From an uncultured Myxococcales bacterium (GTDB lineage: Bacteria > Myxococcota > UBA4151), in NCBI GenBank assembly GCA_964013405.1, contig CAXGWI010000113.1:1-11462 (forward strand): a DNA stretch of 11,462 bases, in the 5' to 3' direction. A program made the translations under genes and the position numbers. Positions 3-11,462 of this stretch are shown here, piece after piece. The notes under the pieces are model-generated. The model was given only the letters and a program-made list of their open reading frames with translations. It had not been told where the DNA came from and ran no database searches. The stretch's first letter is position 1, and every line of letters starts with the position of its first letter.

Positions 3-3000
3 CGCCAGGCCGGCAGGCCTTGCACCGCGGAGAACGCCGCACAGGTGTGCGTGAGCGAAGGCTCCGCTTGCGAGGCCTCGGAGGGGGAGGAGATCAGCCG
101 GTGCACGGGCGACACGATGGTCCGGTCTCTCTTCAACAACGAGGCAACGCCTCCGGGCGTGCATAGCCGGTCGTGGAACGGGCAAGATGACCAGGGCAAC
201 CGTCTCTCCGACGGCGTCTATCTCCTGTCATACTCGGCCCGCCGGGGCGAAGATCAGTCCACCGATTCGATCCTCGTCGGCGTCCTGAGTGAGGCGCCAG
301 CAGAAGTCCGAGGCATGGTCCGAGACCGGGATACGGACCGGGGTATTCCTGGCTCTGTGGTCGAATTGCGAACCCCTCGCGGCGGCCTTATTCAGAAGGG
401 TCAGGTCGGTCGTCGAGGGAACTACGTGCTGCCTCTGATTCGACCCGGCTCCTATCGCCTGACGGCCAATGTCCCAGGTTACGGTGATCCCGAAGGGGTC
501 GACTTGGAGTTGGGCTCCGGTGAACGACGGACCACGCACTTCTGGATGAGCGGCAACCAACCCCCGTCCTTCCGTCCCGTCGACCCCGTCGCTCCGATCG
601 CCGAGGGCAGCGACTTCGAACTCCACATCCAGGCGGTCGACCTCGACGGCGATCCCATCGCTTTAGAGGCTTCGGTCCCCCTCGGTGGCCGCTTCGATGA
701 TCTGGGCCAGGGTCATGGACGCTTCCGCTGGCAGGTCCCCTACAGTGATGATCATGAAGCCCGGCTCTTGGTCGAAGCAAGCGACGGCATGGGCCGCAGT
801 GAGTTACTGATCCGCCTGCCCATTGCCGAAAACAACCGCCCCCCCACCATCCACGGTCACCACCAGGCTGCCCTAAGCTTTGGGCAGCACATGAATCGCC
901 GCATTTGGGCCGTTGACCCAGACGGGGACAACGTCAGCCTGAGCATCGAAAACATGCCACAGGGCGCGAGCTTCGACGGCGAGCACTTCACCTGGACCGC
1001 GCCGAGAGGCTGGATGGGCCGCATCGATATGGAAGTGGTCGCAACCGATGACGGCGATCCCGCAGCCGAGGCCCGAGGCCCCTTCGTCGTAGCCGTGGGC
1101 CCACCCAATGGCCAACCGGTCCTAGAGCCGGTGCGCCAATTGCGAGTAACCGTGGGTCAGGGCTTTAATCACCAGTTCATCGCGGATGACCCGGACGGTG
1201 ACGCCCTTACCTTTGGGGCCAACGACCTCCCAGAGGGCCTCGCCATGTCTGCCGACGGGATCCTCCAGGGGCTCGTCTCCGCCGATCTTGCCGACAGCCA
1301 ACAGGTCATCACCGTCTGGGTTCGTGACAGCAGCGTGCCCGAGGGCAATGACCAAATGCAGGTCACGCTGTTGTTCATCGCAGCAGACCGGGAGCCCTAT
1401 CTCAACCTACCGGATGAATTGGTGGTGTCTCCGAACACCCTGTTCCGTCACCCCGTCGATTTCGGCGGTGGCCAGGACTTGAGTCTGCTGGTGCTCATGG
1501 GCCCGCCGGATCTGGCCTTGGACCCAAGTGGAACGACGCTGGTCTGGAGCGTGCCCCCCCAACTCGCCGATCGGACCGTCCTCGTTCTCGGCCTTCGGGG
1601 TGCCGAGCGACCGATCCGGGCGCAAACGGTTCTCGTGAAACAAGACAACGATCTACCACCGCGTATCGTCTTGCCTGCTGAAGTCACCATGGACGGTCTG
1701 CAGGTCATGCTCGATGCCTCCGAGAGCCACGACCCAGAAGGTGCCCCCTTGCTGTTTGAGTGGTTTCCCGAAGCCGGTGCGACAGTGGAAGACTCGACAG
1801 CGGACGGCAAAGCCCGATTCAAGTTCGAGGAGAATAAACGCTATAAGATCGTGCTGCGTCTAAGCGATGGTCGCCATACGGTCAGTCGAGATGTCCAAAT
1901 CCTTCCCGAGGCGATGGGCACTGGCAGCGTCCCCAGCCAGGGCTGCTTTGATGCGTCGGGCTCGGCCGGCTCCGGTTTGTTTATTCTGTTGGCCCTTCTG
2001 GCGCTGAGGCGCCGGCGGGCTGCCTGGGCTTCTGCAGCAGGACTCTTCCTCCTCGTCGGCTGTGGTAGTGGCTTGCCCCAGTTCGAGGCATCGGAGCTGC
2101 CCAAGCCAGCGAGCGTCCTGCCCGGTTTACTCAACGTCACGGCCCCCTCGCCCGATGGCCTGGTCCAAGTCAGCGGTGCACCCGGTGCCGCGGTGCCGAT
2201 GGCCGAAGTCACCGTGACCCCTGAGAACGGCGAACCCACTTCAACCACATCGAGCATGGATGGGAGCTTCGAAACCTACGTGACGGCGACAAATGCGCAG
2301 AACCTCGTGCTGTCACAGTCAATCGATGGTCGAACTTCGGATCCAATCACCGTGAGGGCTGGTGTTCGCCCCCCCACCGGCCGCGCTGAGCTGGCCCGCA
2401 ATGCCGCGGATGAAACGGTGCTCACCCTCAATACCGCGGCGACCGACGGTGCCGATGAAATCTGGATCCGCGACCCTTACGGAACTTGGTCAAAACTGCC
2501 CGAACCCGACGCAGCAGGGCGTTATGTCATCCCCACCGAAGTCGACCTCCCGCCGAATCCCGGCGACGCCTACGAGGTGAAACAGGTGGTCGAGGGCGTC
2601 AGTTCAAGCCCACGCCCCATCATGGTGAGCGAGCCCGCAGGCGATGCGGGCTTTTCAATGACTGCGAGCAGCGACCCCGAGGACCAGAGCCTCTACATCG
2701 CAGGCCCGGCCAACCCCGACCGCAGTCTGGCCTATGTTCTCGTCACCAACCTCGACGCTGCTGGCTTCCCCCAGCGCAGTGCTCGAGCAGAAGAAGACGG
2801 CGCCTTTGGTCCCGTCGTGATGCCGGGGCATCACGGGGACCGAATGGTCATCGAGATCATCGCAGAGACGGAAACACGGTACGAGCTCATGGGCCCCCTG
2901 GACCGGCGCCGCACCCGGGTCCGCTTTACAGATGTGGGCTCAGCTCAGGTCATCGGGAGTCCCGGCGCAGCCATGCCCGGGGCGACCGTTCAAGCGAGCG

Positions 3001-6000
3001 TCCCCCGACGCGGCCGCACCTTCACGACCACAGCCGATGCCCACGGTGCCTTCGAAATCGATTTGATCGTCGGCGCTGGGGAGACCATTTTATGCACCCA
3101 GAGTTCGGCGGACGAAGAGAGCACGTCGACCTATGAGTCCCCACCGATTCGACTGGTCGCGCCGCAAAGCAGCACGGGGGTCAACGGGGACCTGCTCCGG
3201 AGCAGTCCCGGAGACGATGGGAACATCCGGATCAGCGGGCTCACCGGCGCCACCACCGCAGGCCATGGGATCAGCCTGCGCCATGCTCCCAGCGGCTCGA
3301 CTTCCGCCGATGACCTCGTCGATGGAGGAGCAACCATCGCCAGCGACGACGGCAGCTTCGAGTTGAGCCTGCTCGCTGAAGAGGTTCGAGAGGGAGACGA
3401 ACTGCTCGTGATCCCGGAAGATGGGCCGCCAACGGTCTATCTCATCCCTTCCACGCCCATCGATGTGAACGTCGAGGGCGGCGAGCCAGGTGGCATCGCT
3501 CTTTCCGCCGCCCCAGGCGCTCGCTCAACCCAGACGTCGGTCTCCCTGGCGCCTGGGACGCTCCCCCCCGGGGCCACCTACACCATGGAGGTGGGCAAAG
3601 TCGGTCTCGACGATCGCTTCACGGCTGCCGGCTCCAGCCGAGGTGGCCTAGGTAGCGGCTCGGGGGGGCGCTGGGTGCTTACCGTCGGCCCCGACGGTGG
3701 CAGCGGTCAACGGCCTGTGGTCGTCGAGCCCGGTGAAGCGGTACGGATCCTCTGCGCATACGACGATGGGAGCCGTCAGGTCATTACGGAGGTCCTAGGC
3801 CTGCGGACGGACCAAATCGGGGTGAGTACCCCCGATGATGAAGGCCGTATCGATGTCTTCGCTCCCCCCGGTGCCGCACCGGTCGGTGCCACAATTCGCG
3901 TCCAAGTCGTCAATGGCGCTGCCGGTAGCATTCTCGTCGATTCCGACGGTGGCTTCGGACTCCGCGTCGCTGCCAGCGGCGGAGATGCTGTCCTGGTTCA
4001 AGTCGACCTCCCGGGCTGCGGCTGCAGTTCGTTGCCAACAACGGTGACTGTGCCCGGTGGTGACCGGCCGACCATGACCCTCCCCGTCCCCCCGGCGCAC
4101 CTGCTGGCGACCTGGCGTCGCCCGGGAGGCTACATCGTCTATGGTGCCCCGATGGCGACGGTCTCCGGTGCGACCGTCCTCTTGCGTAGTGCCAACGGGC
4201 AGGTCTTCACCGGACAAGCCAACAGTCGAGGTAGCTTCTTGATCGCTGCTGAGGGCGGCCCCAGCGACGAGGTTAGCCTCACAGCCCAGCGGGGACAGGC
4301 TCGGAGTGATGCAACCACTTTTTGCGTCCCAGAGGTGGCCCAAGACAGTGGCGTTGCCCTGACCCATTGTGCCGGCGAATGGCAACTCTCCGGGCGGGCC
4401 CGTCTCGGCGAGGCCGGAACGACCATGACTTGGACCCTTACATCCATGGATCCGCAACGGGCCATCGCCGCTCAGCTACTCCTCAACGGGGCCCCAGGTT
4501 TGGTGACGTGGAGAAGACGAGCGCAAGAGACCCTTGCGGTGACCCATGCGCCCCCCCTCACAACACTTTTTACAAGCCATAGCGAGCCCCTGGATTTGGG
4601 CCGAAGTGCCCGCATCGGCCGCCTTGGTGACCATCCCCTGCTCCTGCTCGACCACGCTGCAATCTCAGCAAACCGCCCGGAGAATACGCTGCAAATGGGG
4701 CGGGGCTTGGGTGCCCAGCGGCGTTGGCTGCAACCGACGATGCTAGAGGGTCAGGGCGGAAACGGTCTGGTCCTCGCCCTCGCACCGGATCTGGACGACC
4801 GACTGCTCTTTCGCACCGTCGGCCCGATCACCACCATGCCAAGCAGTTTGATCGAGGGCCGAGGCACGGCAGCCCCATTCCCCACCGAAGGTTGGGTTTT
4901 CACCTGGGAGCCCGGCGTCGACCGCATGGAGCTTTGGGGGGGGGCATTGGCTGAAGGGGATCTCATCATCGCCCACTATCCCGGCAGCGAACGCTTTGAC
5001 CTCTTCGTCAGTGAAATGGCCGAACACCCACCAGAGGAAGAGGGTGGAGAGCCAGGGGCCACCGAGCCTCGGATTCAGGTCGAGTTGCGATCCGAGTGGC
5101 TCGATGGGGATGAACCCGCGCCGGTGCACCTTGCCCTCGTCCGGGAGGGGCGGCTTTCCCAAGCCGTGGAACTCTGGCTCGATGACAATGACGATGTCCC
5201 CGTTGCCCAGGAGCTCGGCGAAGGTCGCAGTCGGTTTGGTGATGGCCCAAGGGATTCGGACCGGGACGGGATCCCAGACCTTGCGGATGTGGATTCGGAT
5301 AACGATGGCATCAACGACCGGGACGAGTACGGCCAGCCAGCAGAAGGCGAACCGATCCAGGACAGTGATGGCGATGGTACCCCGGATTACCTCGACGATG
5401 ACAGCGATGGCGATGGCATCCTCGATGTGGAGGAGGGGGCTGGCGATCGAGACAACGACGGCACCCCGGACCATCGGGACACGGACGCGGACAACGATGG
5501 GATCCCAGACCAGCAGGAGCGAGGTCCCGGTGAATTCGCCCGGGATCACGACCAAGACGGAATTCCCGACTTTCAAGACACCGACTCCGATGGGGACGGT
5601 GTCTCGGACCAAGTTGAAATCGGAGATGATCCGGCCCAGCCCGCAAGTCTCGGCGCCAACGGCCCGGACTACTTGAATCCCTGCTTCCCGCGGGCCCCGC
5701 TGCCGATGACCGTCGTTTCGCTCAGTGGTCTATCGGGCCAGCTCGCGCTGCCTGCCGGCTTTGGCGAAGACGCGACCCAGGCGGTCATGGCCACCGTGCC
5801 TGCTTTGGGCGATGAAGACTGTGCTCGACCCCAGCCAGGTGAGCCCGAGGGCACCCGCCCTGTTGGCTCACGGATCACAAGCCAGGACGGCATGCTTGCG
5901 GGGGCAGTCATTCGCCGGCACCGCCCCGAGTTTCTCGATGCCGAGCCGGGCTGGCGCCGGGCAGCGGCCCACCTCGAGGATGTGATCGGGCGCCTGCAAG

Positions 6001-7364
6001 TGGCGGGGTGGAGCTTCGGCGGCCCAGGCCCCAGAGCCTTCCGTGGGGCCGAGGGTGATGCGGCCTTCGTTCAAATCCAAGCCACCCCACCCAATGAGGA
6101 TACCAACACGCTAAACCACCGCTTGGACGCGATCCTAAACACGATTCTCCAAGACTGCAGTGAGCCCGCAGAGGAGGGTGGCGAACCCCAGTGCAACGTG
6201 CCCGCCGTCCGGGAAGCGAACCAAGCAGGCCTTGAAACCCAACAACTGGAACTGGCCATCAGTGCCATCGACCGGTGTGCAGGCAGCGTCGACTTCCAGA
6301 TCATGGTGGCCGTCCAAGACCAGGGTGAAGTGGCCCAGCGAGCTTTCGGTATCGCGGTGGCTTCAGCCATCGCCGGAGGCAGCCATGTGGGAGCCAATGG
6401 TGCGACCCTCGAGCCGGTCTGCGAGGACTACACCTATGGGCAGGGACCAGGGGCCCTCGATGTGATCGTCGTCGTCGACAACTCCGGCAGCATGGAAGAG
6501 GAACAGCAAGCCCTTGCGGAAGCTGCTGCAGACCTGACGAGCACGCTTTCGAGCAGTGGGCTGAACTGGCGCGTCGGTATCACAACGACCGATGCGAACC
6601 CCAACACCAATGGTGGTGATGGCCAATTGATCGGCGGGTTCTCGACTCAAACCGGAACCATCCGAAGCACCATCGAGAACATCGGTACGGATGGCAGCGG
6701 CAGGGAGTATGGCCTGCGAGCCGTTCGCCGAGCCCTCGAGCGAGCCACCGAGAACGATCGGCTCGAGGGCGACGCCCATGCGCTGAGACCGGGTGTACCC
6801 GTCGCCATCATCTTGCTGACCGATAGCGAAGACCAGGGCGCCCGGGATGCCCGCTGTGACAACCGAGACGATGACCGCAATGGCCTGGCCGATGATGCCG
6901 AATGCATTGAGGAAGCGGTGGAAAGTACCATCGCCTTACTCCAGGGTGAGTTGGACCGGGTGCCGCTACCAGAGGGCCTTGATCGAGTCGGGACGCTCTT
7001 TGCGATCACCACCAGCCCCATCGATGGCTGCCCCGACCGCGAGAGCTTTGGGTGGTCCCAAAGAGCCGTTGCCTTGGCTACCGGTGGGTCCGTGGGCAGT
7101 ATCTGCTCCAACGATTTGGACTACAGCGCCTTGATTCGTCGCATGGCAGGACAGGCTGCCGATACCGTGCCCAGTTATAACCTGGGGGGACGGGTGATCG
7201 CCGGTAGCCTGAACGTCACCAGCGGCGGTGAAGGCGAGCGGCAGCCACCGCCCGCTGGAACGTATCGCCATGACCCGGTCACAGGCCATGTCGTGCTTGA
7301 AGCTGGCGCCCTACCAGCCGCCGGTGCTCAGGTAGGCATCAGTGGCATCCGCTGGAGTCGCTGA
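3..7364 (+). CDS. Giant multidomain cell-surface/adhesin-like protein, 5'-partial (FlgD-Ig, CarboxypepD_reg-like, cadherin/PKD-like Ig, internal MYXO-CTERM + lipobox, Ig-like repeats, TSP3 repeats, VWA)
   Basis: ORF track gives 45..7364 (2439 aa from a GTG). The same frame has no stop back to base 3 (RQAGRPCTAENAAQV...) and no signal peptide follows the GTG, so the true start is probably upstream of the window. Recognisable extracellular motifs run along the whole length. TGA stop at 7362-7364. Confidence 0.93.
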   Translation, partial: RQAGRPCTAENAAQVCVSEGSACEASEGEEISRCTGDTMVRSLFNNEATPPGVHSRSWNGQDDQGNRLSDGVYLLSYSARRGEDQSTDSILVGVLSEAPAEVRGMVRDRDTDRGIPGSVVELRTPRGGLIQKGQVGRRGNYVLPLIRPGSYRLTANVPGYGDPEGVDLELGSGERRTTHFWMSGNQPPSFRPVDPVAPIAEGSDFELHIQAVDLDGDPIALEASVPLGGRFDDLGQGHGRFRWQVPYSDDHEARLLVEASDGMGRSELLIRLPIAENNRPPTIHGHHQAALSFGQHMNRRIWAVDPDGDNVSLSIENMPQGASFDGEHFTWTAPRGWMGRIDMEVVATDDGDPAAEARGPFVVAVGPPNGQPVLEPVRQLRVTVGQGFNHQFIADDPDGDALTFGANDLPEGLAMSADGILQGLVSADLADSQQVITVWVRDSSVPEGNDQMQVTLLFIAADREPYLNLPDELVVSPNTLFRHPVDFGGGQDLSLLVLMGPPDLALDPSGTTLVWSVPPQLADRTVLVLGLRGAERPIRAQTVLVKQDNDLPPRIVLPAEVTMDGLQVMLDASESHDPEGAPLLFEWFPEAGATVEDSTADGKARFKFEENKRYKIVLRLSDGRHTVSRDVQILPEAMGTGSVPSQGCFDASGSAGSGLFILLALLALRRRRAAWASAAGLFLLVGCGSGLPQFEASELPKPASVLPGLLNVTAPSPDGLVQVSGAPGAAVPMAEVTVTPENGEPTSTTSSMDGSFETYVTATNAQNLVLSQSIDGRTSDPITVRAGVRPPTGRAELARNAADETVLTLNTAATDGADEIWIRDPYGTWSKLPEPDAAGRYVIPTEVDLPPNPGDAYEVKQVVEGVSSSPRPIMVSEPAGDAGFSMTASSDPEDQSLYIAGPANPDRSLAYVLVTNLDAAGFPQRSARAEEDGAFGPVVMPGHHGDRMVIEIIAETETRYELMGPLDRRRTRVRFTDVGSAQVIGSPGAAMPGATVQASVPRRGRTFTTTADAHGAFEIDLIVGAGETILCTQSSADEESTSTYESPPIRLVAPQSSTGVNGDLLRSSPGDDGNIRISGLTGATTAGHGISLRHAPSGSTSADDLVDGGATIASDDGSFELSLLAEEVREGDELLVIPEDGPPTVYLIPSTPIDVNVEGGEPGGIALSAAPGARSTQTSVSLAPGTLPPGATYTMEVGKVGLDDRFTAAGSSRGGLGSGSGGRWVLTVGPDGGSGQRPVVVEPGEAVRILCAYDDGSRQVITEVLGLRTDQIGVSTPDDEGRIDVFAPPGAAPVGATIRVQVVNGAAGSILVDSDGGFGLRVAASGGDAVLVQVDLPGCGCSSLPTTVTVPGGDRPTMTLPVPPAHLLATWRRPGGYIVYGAPMATVSGATVLLRSANGQVFTGQANSRGSFLIAAEGGPSDEVSLTAQRGQARSDATTFCVPEVAQDSGVALTHCAGEWQLSGRARLGEAGTTMTWTLTSMDPQRAIAAQLLLNGAPGLVTWRRRAQETLAVTHAPPLTTLFTSHSEPLDLGRSARIGRLGDHPLLLLDHAAISANRPENTLQMGRGLGAQRRWLQPTMLEGQGGNGLVLALAPDLDDRLLFRTVGPITTMPSSLIEGRGTAAPFPTEGWVFTWEPGVDRMELWGGALAEGDLIIAHYPGSERFDLFVSEMAEHPPEEEGGEPGATEPRIQVELRSEWLDGDEPAPVHLALVREGRLSQAVELWLDDNDDVPVAQELGEGRSRFGDGPRDSDRDGIPDLADVDSDNDGINDRDEYGQPAEGEPIQDSDGDGTPDYLDDDSDGDGILDVEEGAGDRDNDGTPDHRDTDADNDGIPDQQERGPGEFARDHDQDGIPDFQDTDSDGDGVSDQVEIGDDPAQPASLGANGPDYLNPCFPRAPLPMTVVSLSGLSGQLALPAGFGEDATQAVMATVPALGDEDCARPQPGEPEGTRPVGSRITSQDGMLAGAVIRRHRPEFLDAEPGWRRAAAHLEDVIGRLQVAGWSFGGPGPRAFRGAEGDAAFVQIQATPPNEDTNTLNHRLDAILNTILQDCSEPAEEGGEPQCNVPAVREANQAGLETQQLELAISAIDRCAGSVDFQIMVAVQDQGEVAQRAFGIAVASAIAGGSHVGANGATLEPVCEDYTYGQGPGALDVIVVVDNSGSMEEEQQALAEAAADLTSTLSSSGLNWRVGITTTDANPNTNGGDGQLIGGFSTQTGTIRSTIENIGTDGSGREYGLRAVRRALERATENDRLEGDAHALRPGVPVAIILLTDSEDQGARDARCDNRDDDRNGLADDAECIEEAVESTIALLQGELDRVPLPEGLDRVGTLFAITTSPIDGCPDRESFGWSQRAVALATGGSVGSICSNDLDYSALIRRMAGQAADTVPSYNLGGRVIAGSLNVTSGGEGERQPPPAGTYRHDPVTGHVVLEAGALPAAGAQVGISGIRWSR
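15..104 (+). other. Cys-rich (C-x8-C-x6-C-x10-C) disulfide module
   Basis: In-frame Cys codons at 21, 48, 69 and 102 (RPCTAENAAQVCVSEGSACEASEGEEISRC). Resembles the short Cys-rich repeats common in myxobacterial extracellular proteins. Confidence 0.55.
117..285 (+). other. FlgD Ig-like domain (C-terminal portion)
   Basis: MVRSLFNNEATPPGVHSRSWNGQDDQGNRLSDGVYLL matches the FlgD_ig pattern VRxL...GxHxxxWxGxDxxG..xxxGxY. Confidence 0.8.
303..549 (+). other. Carboxypeptidase regulatory-like (prealbumin-fold) domain
   Basis: VRGMVRDRDTDRGIPGSVVEL...GNYVLPLIRPGSYRLTANVPGY matches the pattern IxGxVxD..G.P.PGAxV...GxYxxxxLxPGxYxLxxxxxGY. Confidence 0.8.
555..1908 (+). repeat. Five tandem ~90-aa cadherin-like/putative-Ig and PKD-like modules
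   Basis: Modules start at NQPP (555), NRPP (834), NGQP (1107), DREP (1386) and DLPP (1650), spaced 88-93 aa apart. The first three carry AxDxDGD Ca-linker motifs (AVDLDGD, AVDPDGD, ADDPDGD); the first two end in VxAxDxG-like strands. The fourth is degenerate. The fifth has the PKD-like LDASESHDPEG..LxFEW. Confidence 0.8.
1941..2018 (+). other. MYXO-CTERM-like (Gly-Cys / TM helix / Arg cluster) sorting signal, internal to the ORF
   Basis: GCFDASGSAGSGLFILLALLALRRRR: Gly-Cys at 1941-1946, small-residue spacer, hydrophobic stretch, then RRRR at 2007-2018. It follows a G/S-rich linker after the last Ig module. Confidence 0.8.
2007..2063 (+). other. Internal lipoprotein (signal peptidase II-type) signal peptide with lipobox LVG|C
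   Basis: RRRR (n-region), AAWASAAGLFLLVG (14 uncharged residues), then Cys at 2061-2063 followed by GSG. Fits the lipobox consensus [LVI][ASTVI][GAS]C. Confidence 0.72.
2127..4335 (+). repeat. About 8 diverged ~80-100-aa beta-sandwich (Ig-like) repeats
   Basis: Recurrent pattern VxGxPGAAxPGAxV...xxDGxFxxxxxxxxGDxLxxxQ: GAPGAAVPMAEV..DGSF (2175), GSPGAAMPGATV..HGAF..GE (2955), GLTGATTAG..DGSF..GD, APGTLPPGATY..GE, APPGAAPVGATI..DGGF..GD (3861), GAPMATVSGATV..RGSF (4143), plus two more degenerate units (..AGRY..PGD, ..DGAF..HGD). Confidence 0.7.
5253..5618 (+). repeat. Thrombospondin type-3-like Ca2+-binding repeats (8 x DxDxDG)
   Basis: DSDRDG, DSDNDG, DSDGDG, DSDGDG, DRDNDG, DADNDG, DHDQDG, DSDGDG, arranged as four DxDxDGxPDxxDxDxDxDGxxDxxE pairs. 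Confidence 0.9.
6453..7155 (+). other. von Willebrand factor A domain with MIDAS motif (myxobacterial CglB-like type)
   Basis: LDVIVVVDNSGSMEEEQ (DxSxS at 6477-6491), WRVGITTTD, GSGREYGL, IILLTDSED (6807-6833) and ATGGSVGSICS. This motif order is typical of myxobacterial VWA lipoproteins. Confidence 0.9.
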
Positions 7365-7376
7365 CCTGGGGCCGAA

Positions 7377-8585
7377 TTAGACGTCGTAGCCGTGAACGTC
7401 GCCAAAGCGGCGTAACCGGAGTGCGTTGAGTTTGATGAAGCCATCGGCATCAGCCTGGTTGTAGACTTCTTCGGCCTCGAAACTCGCCACCTCGGGGTCG
7501 TAGAGCGTCTTCTCGGCCTTGCGACCAACCACCGCTGCCGCGCCTTTATAGAGCTTCATCCGGACGGTTCCCGTCACGTCTCGCTGACTCAAATCGATGG
7601 TTTGCTGCAGGAGCTGTCGCTCCGGTGCGTACCAAAAACCATTGTAAACCAACTTGGCGTAGCGGGGCACAAGTTCATCCTTAAAGTGGGCGACCTCCCG
7701 ATCCAGAGTCAAACTCTCGATGGCCCGGTGAGCGGCGAGCAGCACGGTCACCCCTGGCGTTTCATACACACCACGGCTCTTCATGCCGACGAAGCGATTC
7801 TCGACGATATCCACGCGACCGATGCCGTGGGCACCGGCTCGAGCGTTGAGGTGGGTCAGAAGCTCAAAGGGCGTCATGGCCACACCGTCCACTGCGACCG
7901 CATCCCCCGCTTCAAAACGAATCTCCACATACTCCGCTTGATCCGGCGCGTCTTCGGGGTTCACCGTCATTTTAAACATCGAGTTGTCGGCTTCCCGCCA
8001 GGGGTCTTCAAGAATCCCGCCCTCGTAGGAGATGTGCATCGCATTCGCATCCATCGAGTACGGCTTCTCAGCACTCGCCTCCACCTGCAGGCCCCGGGCT
8101 TCGCAGTAGTCGAGGAGATCCTTTCGCCCTTTGTAGGCCCAATCGCGCCAAGGAGCGATGACCTTGATGTCTGGCTTTAAGGCATACGCGGTGAGTTCGA
8201 AGCGCACCTGGTCATTCCCCTTGCCCGTCGCTCCATGACTGATCGCATCAGCACCTTCGGCCGTTGCGATCTCAACCATTCGCTTGCCGATGAGTGGGCG
8301 CGCTAATGAGGTGCCAAGCAGATAGACGCCTTCATACAGTGCATTGGCCCGAACGGCCGGGAACACAAAGTCGCGAACAAACTCTTCACGCAGATCATCG
8401 ATGTAGATTTTCGAGCCAGCGGCTGCTGCCTTGCCTTCGAGCGGATCGAGTTCCTCCCCCTGGCCCAAGTCGGCAGCGAAACAGACGACTTCGCAGCCAT
8501 AGGTCTCTTTCAGCCAATGCAGAATAACCGTGGTATCTAGACCACCGCTGTAAGCGAGGACGACTTTGCTGATCTCTTGTGCCAT
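7377..8585 (-). CDS. argG: Argininosuccinate synthase
   Basis: 402 aa with signatures [68 protein letters not shown] at 8585, preceded by GGGAGG. Confidence 0.98.
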
Positions 8586-8634: not shown

Positions 8635-10488
8635 TCAACCGGCGCTCAACTGGTCGCCGAAGGTCGCTGACAAATCGTCCGGAAGCCCTTGAAGGTTACC
8701 GTCCTCAGTCTGAAAGGCCTGAAGCCACTTCACAAAGCGGTCCTGCTCCGCCGGTTCACTCCGGGCCAACACGTCCTCTCCATGGCTGAGGATCCGGTTG
8801 ATCCGCTCAGCTTCACCCTCCTCTTCGGCATCATCACGAAGCCGTCGAACATCGCCCAAGAGTAACCGGAGACCCTCTCGAGATGCCTGCTTGATTCGAT
8901 CACTGTGGCTCCGCAGCAGGTTCGCCTGGTGCGCCGCTTTGAGCTTGTCCAACTCTTCGTGGCTCAGCCCGGACGGGACCAGCAAAGCTGCCCGGTATTC
9001 GTTGCCAGTGCCGGCGTCCTGGGCAAAAATATTGACGGTGCCATCGGCATCGATGCTGAAGTCCAGATGGACTCGCACGCTGCCCCGCGGTCCTTTCTGG
9101 AGCCCCGTGATCTTCACAACCCCCAACAACTCATTGCCGGAGGCCGTCGTGGAGCGACCTTGCCGTACGACGAGGCTCAACTGGTCTTGATCGTTTTGGC
9201 TCGTCGTGAGCGCCCGAGCAGCCACGGCTGGGATCGCTGTATTTCTGGTGACGATGGTCTCAAACCGATCGTTCGGGAGTTGGATACCTAAGTCATGGGG
9301 TGTCACGTCCATGAGTAGAATCTGCCCCCGCAAGCCCGACAACGCCGCGGCCTGAACAGCGGCGCCCAAGGCGACCGCATTGTCCGGATCCACAGCCTGG
9401 GAAGGCTCCCGGCCGGACAGGACCTTGAGCCGTTTACGGACCAGCGGCGTTCGGGTCGTCCCACCGACGAGAAGAATCTCATCGATATCATCAAAACTGA
9501 GATCACAGTCATCCAGGGTCTGCTGGGTGACCTGCATCGCCTTGCCCACCAGATCTTCGATCAGGTTTTCTAGACGTGCTCTGGGCAACTCCATCTCCAG
9601 GTGGATAGGCGAGCCGTCTTCGAGGGCCGAAAGGAAAGGCAGATTGAACCGAGCGGTGACAGCGGAAGAGAGTTCGTGGCGAACATTGCGCGCGGCTTCT
9701 CGAAGCCGTTGCATGGCCGTGGCATCACCGCTCAAGTCCACCTCGTGCTGATCGCGAAGTTCGTGGAGCAAGAGGTTCACGACCCGGTCGTCAAAGTCCT
9801 CACCGCCGAGACGGGTATCACCACCCGTTGCGACCACACGAAACATACCTTCTCGCACATCAACGATGCTGACGTCGAAAGTACCACCACCCAGGTCAAA
9901 GACGAGGACTCGCCCCTCCTGCCGGTCGTGTCCGTACGCAAGAGCCGCCGCCGTCGGCTCATTGATCATTCGAACGACTTCCAACCCGGCAATTTTGCCC
10001 GCATCGCGCGTCGCTGCCCGCTGTGCGTCGGTAAAGTACGCTGGGACCGTGATCACGGCTCGCCGGACAGATTCCCCGAGGAAAGCCTCCGCTCGACGCT
10101 TGATCTCGGCGAGTACCTCAGCGCAAATGGCCGAGGGAGGAAGCATTTCATCCCGCAGCATGACCCGGGCATCCCCCCGCGGTCCGGCCACGATCTCGAA
10201 TGGGCTCGTTGGGATCTGCTCCTCAAGGACCGGATGGTCAAAGGGGCGCCCGATCAAACGCTTGACCCCGAAAATCGTGTGCTTCGGGTTGGTGACTGCC
10301 TGTCGAAAAGCCAACAAGCCTGAAAGCAGGCGACCATCGGATGTCTTTGCGACGACGCTCGGAAAGCCGACCTCGCCACTTTCACTGGTCACAACGACCG
10401 GCCCATCACCCTGCCAGACGGCCGCACAGGTGTTGGTGGTACCGAGATCGATACCAATGATGGGGCTGTTGTCCTGACCCGCCACCAT
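8635..10488 (-). CDS. dnaK: Hsp70/DnaK-family chaperone (divergent paralog, probably not the housekeeping DnaK)
   Basis: 617 aa. Hsp70 signatures IIGIDLGTTN, KRLIGR, AVITVPAYF, RMINEPTAAALAYG, VFDLGGGTFDVSI, LGGEDFD, LLVGGTTRTP; linker ILLMDVTP; substrate-domain PRG..FSIDADG. The lid and tail are divergent. Confidence 0.95.
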   Translation of the reverse strand: MVAGQDNSPIIGIDLGTTNTCAAVWQGDGPVVVTSESGEVGFPSVVAKTSDGRLLSGLLAFRQAVTNPKHTIFGVKRLIGRPFDHPVLEEQIPTSPFEIVAGPRGDARVMLRDEMLPPSAICAEVLAEIKRRAEAFLGESVRRAVITVPAYFTDAQRAATRDAGKIAGLEVVRMINEPTAAALAYGHDRQEGRVLVFDLGGGTFDVSIVDVREGMFRVVATGGDTRLGGEDFDDRVVNLLLHELRDQHEVDLSGDATAMQRLREAARNVRHELSSAVTARFNLPFLSALEDGSPIHLEMELPRARLENLIEDLVGKAMQVTQQTLDDCDLSFDDIDEILLVGGTTRTPLVRKRLKVLSGREPSQAVDPDNAVALGAAVQAAALSGLRGQILLMDVTPHDLGIQLPNDRFETIVTRNTAIPAVAARALTTSQNDQDQLSLVVRQGRSTTASGNELLGVVKITGLQKGPRGSVRVHLDFSIDADGTVNIFAQDAGTGNEYRAALLVPSGLSHEELDKLKAAHQANLLRSHSDRIKQASREGLRLLLGDVRRLRDDAEEEGEAERINRILSHGEDVLARSEPAEQDRFVKWLQAFQTEDGNLQGLPDDLSATFGDQLSAG

Positions 10489-11442
10489 CTATCGTCTCTT
10501 TTTCAGGCGTTCTTGGATATCTGAAGCCGCAGGGTCGAGTCGGGCGATCTTCTCTGCAACCGTCCGAGCTTTCGCATCCATCCCAGCCGTATCAAGAATA
10601 TTTAACATGACCCGAAGAAACTCAGTGTTATCGGGCGCAACATCAATGGCCCTTTGCGCCATATTTGCCGCCTCTTGAAGGTCCTCGCCCACGCGGCAGC
10701 AACACTCTGCTGCCCGGGCCCAGTACTCTGGTCGGTGCTCACATATCTTCGCGGCGTTCGAGAACGCCAAGGCTGCCTGATCCCAGCGCCCAACATTCAT
10801 CGCAAACTCACCGGCCTTCACGTGAGGTTCACTGCGGAAGTCGGAAGCACGAACACGCATTCGTTCCTCCATCTCAGTGTAGAGCGGATTCCTCGGATCG
10901 AAGGTCTTGGCAGCAAGGATGGCATTGTGCGCCTTCACAAATTCCTTCTTTTCCACGAACTGCATCGCCTCTTGATAGAGGGCCTTGGCCCGGCCGATGT
11001 TCGCAAACATCGGATTTTTTCTTAGGCGACGACGGCGAAGCCCCTCTGAAAGCCGCTGCCGCTCCCGCTGACGGGCTTCTCGGACTTCTTCCGGCAAGTC
11101 CTCTTCTTGAATCTCTTCAATGGACACACCCATCAGCTGGGTCCTGAGCTCCGAGCGTTGATCCTTATCGAGTAACACGTCTGCCGCGGCCCGAACCTGC
11201 GTATAGAGGCGTAGAATAAGGGGTCCGAAACTCCCCACCTCCTGACCAAAATAGGTGTCCGGGTGAAACATCCTCAATTTCTTGTCCGCTTGGCGCATGA
11301 TGCGTCCATCGTCTGCGGACATGGGAACATCGATTACTTTAAATGGTGACATGTCATCGATACGAGCATCGAGAAACAGCATCTCCTTACGCACATTCAT
11401 CTCCAGTGCGCAGATCTCCTCCAAGGGAGCACGGGGGAACAT
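10489..11442 (-). CDS. J-domain (DnaJ-type, HPD) + TPR-repeat protein, possibly 5'-partial
   Basis: Residues ~31-100 (SPFKVIDVPMSADDGRIMRQADKKLRMFHPD...YTQVRAAADVLLDKDQRSEL) form a J-domain with HPD at 11257-11265. The C-terminal half has TPR-like units (AKALYQEA..A..FDPRNPLY; G..AMNVGRWDQAALAFSNA; AQRAIDVAPDNTEF; IARLDP). The frame stays open to the window edge (GRFEGF-M), so the start may be upstream. Confidence 0.85.
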   Translation of the reverse strand: MFPRAPLEEICALEMNVRKEMLFLDARIDDMSPFKVIDVPMSADDGRIMRQADKKLRMFHPDTYFGQEVGSFGPLILRLYTQVRAAADVLLDKDQRSELRTQLMGVSIEEIQEEDLPEEVREARQRERQRLSEGLRRRRLRKNPMFANIGRAKALYQEAMQFVEKKEFVKAHNAILAAKTFDPRNPLYTEMEERMRVRASDFRSEPHVKAGEFAMNVGRWDQAALAFSNAAKICEHRPEYWARAAECCCRVGEDLQEAANMAQRAIDVAPDNTEFLRVMLNILDTAGMDAKARTVAEKIARLDPAASDIQERLKKRR

Positions 11443-11462
11443 GAATCCCTCAAATCGGCCGA

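Follow-up and report, generated by a model that had tools for sequence, protein, structure and literature searches.

Two exported proteins are joined head to tail within a single open frame in the genome of an uncultured Myxococcales bacterium. The join is formed by a short hinge, in which an internal MYXO-CTERM tag is followed directly by a lipobox signal and one arginine cluster serves both. We consider it probable, judging from the sequence, that this hinge makes the product a membrane hairpin precursor, which myxosortase and LspA would cut to give two lipid-anchored envelope proteins, termed here protein A and protein B. The window, that is the whole stretch of DNA that was analysed, is the entire contig C113 (11,462 nucleotides) of genome G000, an assembly of 3.9 Mb in 244 contigs.

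The giant gene and its two halves

The visible part of the giant gene is an open frame of 2,453 aa (3..7364, + strand), annotated at NCBI as a single hypothetical protein. It is without the first 460 aa of the precursor, which lie on contig C231; a search of the genome's own contigs located there a 469-aa frame that matches the head of the G001 orthologue at 85% and shares 16 bases with the start of C113. The gene's own start on C231 is preceded by an AGGAGG ribosome site, and the frame begins with an SPI-type Sec signal (judged by eye), as do three orthologues. By arithmetic, the two contigs give a full precursor of approximately 2,913 aa, in which the junction cysteines occupy positions 1108 and 1147, a numbering identical to that of database protein P0001. 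Named relatives are labelled Myxococcales or Myxococcota bacterium, and the sequencing runs with matching DNA are marine by record. Genes at 7377-8585, 8635-10488 and 10489-11460 (- strand) converge on the giant gene; from their translations, we take them to be argininosuccinate synthase-like, DnaK-like and TPR-like, respectively. G001-G003 share the argG-like and DnaK-like neighbours, and on the 5′ side the neighbour differs between genera.

A gene spanning the join is found in four of 41 genomes searched, namely G000, G001 (same genus), and G002 and G003 (another genus). Identity to the G001 protein is 71%, and to the G002 and G003 proteins it is 49% in the A half and 35% in the B half. The relatives' open frames measure 2,890-2,916 aa, and in none of the four genomes is there a stop at the join.

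Protein A opens, in the first 460 aa, with the Sec/SPI-type signal, a helical domain resembling squalene-hopene cyclase C and an Ig domain. Its visible part (3..1940, + strand) contains FlgD-Ig, carboxypeptidase-regulatory-like and cadherin/He_PIG/Big_9-like repeats and a PKD-like domain, and ends in a short Gly/Ser/Pro linker ahead of the tag. By domain content, A is a putative stalked protein with a helical-barrel head. A single-sequence structural model of the head is unusable (pLDDT 39.6), with Atlas matches below 0.9. The head has matches in 112 of 401 genomes, with identities of 21-35% outside the four orthologous genomes; among 16 loci inspected outside those genomes, 15 end without a tag and one ran off the locus. 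The squalene-hopene-cyclase-C match is accompanied by a CxxCH motif (C231; L016:3978-4910), and the pattern C-x-x-C-H-x-Q is seen again in those distant, exported myxobacterial homologues of the head that were inspected.

Protein B (2061..7364, + strand; 1,767 aa) consists of Ig/FnIII-like beta-sandwich repeats, a middle part with no domain assignment, acidic DxDxDG (thrombospondin-3-like) repeats and a vWA domain, a content that suggests an adhesin-like Ig-stalk/TSP3/vWA lipoprotein. Its structural model has a pLDDT of 80.7, with residues 1-11 below 50, forming a low-confidence tether ahead of the first domain. The vWA region bears a local likeness (46.9 bits) to the gliding lipoprotein CglD (NF033765), from which B differs by its long Ig-repeat stalk; membership of that family was rejected, at 46.9-48.6 bits against a cut-off of 400.

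An earlier note on this DNA had described repeat families as switching exactly at the join. This holds for Big_9, He_PIG and PKD-type repeats, which lie before it, and for Big_6 and vWA, which lie after it; it does not hold for CarboxypepD_reg-like matches, which occur on both sides. Within the same genome, A's cadherin-like region has five paralogues, four of which carry a MYXO-CTERM at the usual terminal position; of the four paralogues of B's vWA region, three have a usual lipoprotein signal at the start.

The two arms of the hinge

The first arm begins with Gly647-Cys648 (1941..1946, + strand; the glycine codon at 1941 and the cysteine codon at 1944). Cys648 is the signature cysteine of a MYXO-CTERM tag, and is predicted to be both a lipidation site and the new C-terminus of protein A. 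It is followed by the hydrophobic segment GLFILLALLAL (1974..2006, + strand), which is the top hydropathy window of the open frame and a predicted out-to-in helix, and by RRRR (Arg669-672; 2007..2018, + strand), which would form a cytoplasmic turn and acts both as the arginine cluster of the tag and as the n-region of the second signal. On the Kyte-Doolittle scale, the two junction segments rank first and second for hydrophobicity in the frame with windows of 15 and 19 residues, and first and third with windows of 11 residues. The nucleotide coordinates that the earlier note gave for both cysteines and for RRRR are exact, and the frame through them is uninterrupted. At 1958-1977, two terminator-like matches overlap each other (0.6 +/- 0.9 expected); they were treated as by-products of Leu/Phe codons.

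Recognition of the tag by curated models, which the earlier note had proposed as a check, proved partial. The excised 49-aa tag piece passes TIGR03382 (16.8, cut-off 15.85) and fails TIGR03901 (16.9, cut-off 20), both matches starting just past Cys648, and neither model is listed in a scan of the full-length frame. The tags of the G002 and G003 orthologues pass both models; that of G001 passes neither and is matched by TIGR03901 only, at 15.4. On a profile built from terminal tags of the same genome, the internal tag scores 14.9 with the cysteine outside the match, and the four best non-seed terminal tags score 20.3-23.5. Several hallmarks of the MYXO-CTERM class are in place: the signature cysteine, the hydrophobic helix with its arginine cluster, an export signal at the carrier's N-terminus and a myxosortase in the genome. 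The position is not C-terminal, since 1,781 residues follow the tag. It is best described as an atypical internal form, for which Cys-dependent cleavage by myxosortase is predicted.

The second arm (2019..2063, + strand) comprises another hydrophobic segment and the lipobox LVG-Cys687, a predicted Lgt/LspA site by a matrix built from the genome itself. The training set for this matrix was 384 N-terminal lipobox sites from G000, picked by a PROSITE-style pattern. Cys687 ranks first among 8,456 internal cysteines in the genome's open frames; its score of 12.1 is close to the training sites' lower quartile (12.2), and the next internal cysteine scores 9.1. The Cys687 codon lies at 2061, and the earlier estimate of an approximately 1,770-aa protein B with glycine at +2 agrees with the 1,767 aa counted from Cys687 to the stop and with the glycine found there. 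The basic n-region, h-region and lipobox cysteine of a Sec/SPII signal are all present, as are Lgt and LspA in the genome; the signal does not sit at an N-terminus after an initiator Met, and there is neither an ATG nor a conserved alternative start. The 384 lipobox-like N-termini occur among 2,940 kept open frames, many of them in large proteins, and by this rough count G000 is an unusually lipoprotein-rich small genome.

Both cysteines of the hinge, whose conservation the earlier note had made a point on which its reading would stand or fall, are invariant in six of six aligned homologues. The residues between them are largely changed, with their hydrophobic or basic character kept, and the lipobox appears as LVGC, LQAC, TQAC and IAGC. 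Invariant cysteines are common elsewhere in the protein as well (20 of 22), so cysteine conservation alone is not specific. Between G000 and G001, codons are changed at 3 of 32 positions in the tag, which is as constrained as A, and at 7 of 18 in the lipoprotein signal, which is freer; in neither arm does this discriminate between models.

The enzymes that such a hinge would call upon are encoded in the genome. One open frame (L020) matches the myxosortase core model NF040914 (Mrt_core) at 111.1 bits against a cut-off of 100, and lies below the cut-offs for MrtX, MrtC and MrtP. LspA and Lgt are above cut-off, as are GspD and LolA; Lnt-like matches fall under the TIGR00546 cut-off (121.5 vs 132.9). 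A second CPBP/Rce1-like protease is fused to a TPR-containing N-terminal region (L019; G000:C14:24841-28140), and was ruled out as a myxosortase by its score.

Probable processing of the precursor and alternative readings

The Sec signal would export protein A first. The tag helix would then halt transfer with RRRR on the cytoplasmic side, and export would resume at the following helix, so that B would become periplasmic too. Cys687 would be diacylglycerylated by Lgt and the chain cut by LspA, yielding B (1,767 aa) lipidated at its N-terminus. Cys648 would be lipidated and myxosortase would cut after it, giving A (~1,085 aa once its signal is removed) with a C-terminal lipid, and the ~38-aa hairpin would remain for degradation. 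In the myxosortase model itself, lipidation is still described as hypothetical (PMC11980579). Synthesis of A and B would be tied 1:1.

The fusion is likely to have arisen from two adjacent genes. Among 301 genomes, the B half has strong matches in G000-G003 only, besides two weak partial ones. In the protein database, the B half returned two full-length fusions at lengths of 971-3,093 aa and none at 30-970 aa; the A half returned one true homologue running through the join and six generic repeat proteins. A scan of metagenome contigs gave no confirmed relative. Across the genomes, protein database and contig scan, no split or stand-alone form of this gene family was found, and a two-gene origin can thus only be inferred. 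The separate adjacent genes that the earlier note suggested looking for were not found for this family, and such an arrangement does occur in another one. In genome G289, two trypsin-domain genes stand in tandem (L029; G289:C263:203960-204121): a MYXO-CTERM closes the first, and nine codons past its stop an in-frame Met opens the second with a lipoprotein signal. By its sequence, this pair resembles the two-gene precursor state that would be expected for such a fusion.

A single cut is unlikely, though less so than the other alternatives; in its most likely forms, LspA would free B while the tag helix holds A, or myxosortase would free A while the hairpin holds B. The tag stands at the weak end of its family in G000 and G001, as this alternative would suggest, and PMC11980579 describes some uncleaved myxosortase substrates that still reach the surface. 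Cys648 is nonetheless invariant in the six homologues while its neighbours vary, and the tags of G002 and G003 pass both curated models. Furthermore, the tag extension left after the LspA cut would be 14 residues, inside the range of 0-19 seen after the genome's terminal tags.

The short helices of the hinge, whose cores span 11 and 14 residues, make it improbable that it serves as a permanent two-helix anchor in the inner membrane, with the protein whole and both cysteines either lipidated or disulfide-linked. Two helices around RRRR do obey the positive-inside rule, and the invariance of many other cysteines (20 of 22) is also in keeping with such an anchor. Set against this, Cys687 has the best internal lipoprotein-signal context in the genome, the hinge is also found with AxA-type signals that bring no second cysteine, and a 1,767-aa Ig-stalk/vWA protein would far exceed the length for spanning the periplasm.

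It is quite improbable that an internal in-frame start within the tag supplies some or most of B, as with overlapping genes that share a frame. No ATG lies ahead of the arginine cluster, and the positions of TTG and GTG codons differ among the four genomes; TTG codons that could serve are present at Leu659 and Leu663. Just 5′ of the TTG and GTG codons there is no Shine-Dalgarno-like 4-mer; in this genome such a 4-mer precedes 110 of 179 ATG starts of lipoproteins. The TraA and TraB frames overlap (PMC11980579), which gives a precedent of a kind; here, with no stop at the join, the full-length product would need processing anyway.

An assembly error or a recent loss of a stop codon fusing two genes, which the fragmentation of the genome into 244 contigs might invite, has a negligible probability, given a join that is open in all four genomes with the gene, in all 13 join-covering proteins among the 27 mapped database proteins listed, including a full-length 2,882-aa copy on a 3.73-Mb contig, and in a contig of sequencing run X8. 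None of these 27 proteins (one cluster being represented by 15 of its 26 members) starts or ends at the join. Contigs from eight runs were compared: one X8 contig bridges 1791-2119 gap-free at a depth of 2.4, and X6 and X7 cover parts of the join. RNA run X1 has pieces either side of the join and not across it, which carries no weight either way. The gene is encoded in many separate assemblies, and misassembly is thereby excluded; a stop codon or misassembly at the junction would, by the earlier note, have refuted its reading. On some long-contig assemblies, the gene is in pieces (P0003, P0013, P0014 and P0023), broken inside B after residue ~1,458 and not at the hinge; these breaks are probably sequencing indels.

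The hinge in Myxococcota and in known systems

A tag, an arginine cluster and an export signal in succession form a common layout in the phylum. Searching 401 Myxococcota genomes with a hinge profile gave 30 loci, 26 of them non-seed: eight open with an AxA-type signal, two open with a lipobox and 16 in which a stop soon follows the tag, the G289 pair being one of these 16. Among 20 regions chosen from the profile matches for long stop-free coverage, 14 were of AxA type, three had a lipobox, one had a stop and two were not parsed. These counts describe selected sets, with 16-17 candidates scored per genome, and are not frequencies; the type of second signal was judged by eye. Within these sets, the hinge is commoner with an AxA-type signal than with a lipobox, and by eye it often lies ahead of barrel-like sequence. 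By established envelope biology, an outer-membrane barrel placed after the hinge could move on from the inner membrane only once the second cut is made. G000 itself holds a second internal MYXO-CTERM (G000:C238:912-2600, - strand), its 5′ end cut by the contig, with acidic TSP3-like repeats, the tag, RRR, an AxA-type signal and barrel-like sequence, a layout that is TraA/TraB- or MXAN_5598-like.

Five further genes, from G102, G247, G041, G345 and G348 and belonging to two other families, have a lipobox-type join. Their flanks (100-500 aa) show no match to the present gene and match lectin-C, MopE-like or cytochrome-like sequences instead, which points to repeated origins, the comparison being one of matches and not phylogenetic. 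On balance, we lean towards the view that Myxococcota use a portable 40-residue hinge (MYXO-CTERM, arginine turn and export signal) as a general means of making polyproteins, and that this device emerged on repeated occasions with partners unrelated to one another. Where the second signal is a lipobox, Lgt and LspA would act at a site over 1,000 residues into the chain and myxosortase would cut the other arm, giving a C-lipidated and an N-lipidated surface protein 1:1 in each pass of the ribosome. Such a device would parallel, in bacteria, the polyproteins that viruses process by signal peptidase; a literature search for a bacterial signal-peptidase polyprotein returned nothing relevant.

If the processing proposed for the present gene is correct, Lgt and LspA are independent of an N-terminal signal and myxosortase of a terminal tag. 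Genes annotated as a single giant hypothetical protein would then encode two, which predictors confined to N-termini miss, and the hinge would be a compact tool for the 1:1 display of two proteins. With a hinge this short, and with both enzymes active in E. coli, as reported for MrtX (PMC11980579), the proposal is directly testable.

The earlier note knew of no characterised example. As far as our searches reach, the lipobox form of the internal MYXO-CTERM fusion is unpublished, and the internal tag itself is already known: no paper was found on the lipobox version or on Lgt and LspA at an internal lipobox, in a search that took in few subscription papers and bioRxiv supplements. Sec/SPII lipoproteins are processed by Lgt and LspA, and the second arm resembles their signals in its basic n-region, 14-residue h-region, L-x-G-C lipobox and flexible tether; it differs in having no initiator Met and in lying ~1,130 residues into the precursor. 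The FbcH cytochrome b-c1 precursor of Bradyrhizobium is split at an internal signal sequence, and differs in undergoing a single cut and in yielding respiratory membrane subunits, which are not known to carry lipid anchors.

The first arm is closest to the TraA/MrtX prototype (PMC11980579; 10.1101/2023.06.07.544157), with which it shares the cysteine, hydrophobic helix, arginine cluster, N-terminal export signal and a myxosortase-core protein; unlike in the prototype, 1,781 residues separate the present tag from the C-terminus, and the arginine cluster of the tag also forms an n-region. The words 'internal', 'polyprotein' and 'fusion' are absent from the available main text of Haft 2023 (10.1101/2023.06.07.544157), whose supplements may list internal tags. 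Internal tags are called rare in PMC11980579 (Guo, Haft & Wall 2025), which takes MXAN_5598 of Myxococcus xanthus (adhesin, tag, barrel, OmpA) for a likely product of gene fusion and proposes processing of its N-terminal part. Like MXAN_5598, the present protein has a large adhesin-like N-terminal half and an internal MYXO-CTERM after it, with fusion and processing proposed. The C-terminal half of MXAN_5598 is an outer-membrane barrel with OmpA, for which the text consulted describes no second signal or lipobox; in B, there is no Pfam or NCBIfam match to a barrel or OmpA domain. With a predicted lipoprotein as the second half here, each product would carry a lipid anchor, A at its C-terminus and B at its N-terminus. 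In vesicle samples, MXAN_5598 was detected in three of three through a single peptide (741-755 of 2,699 aa; PMC4158809), which is too thin for evidence of processing. A parallel in another domain of life is HVO_0405 of Haloferax volcanii, in which two genes are fused around a central C-terminal-type sorting tag that is cut in vivo by its cognate archaeosortase (PMC7157517). That fusion is archaeal and is described as strain-specific, with no second lipobox signal mentioned in the text consulted, whereas the join described here is conserved across genera.
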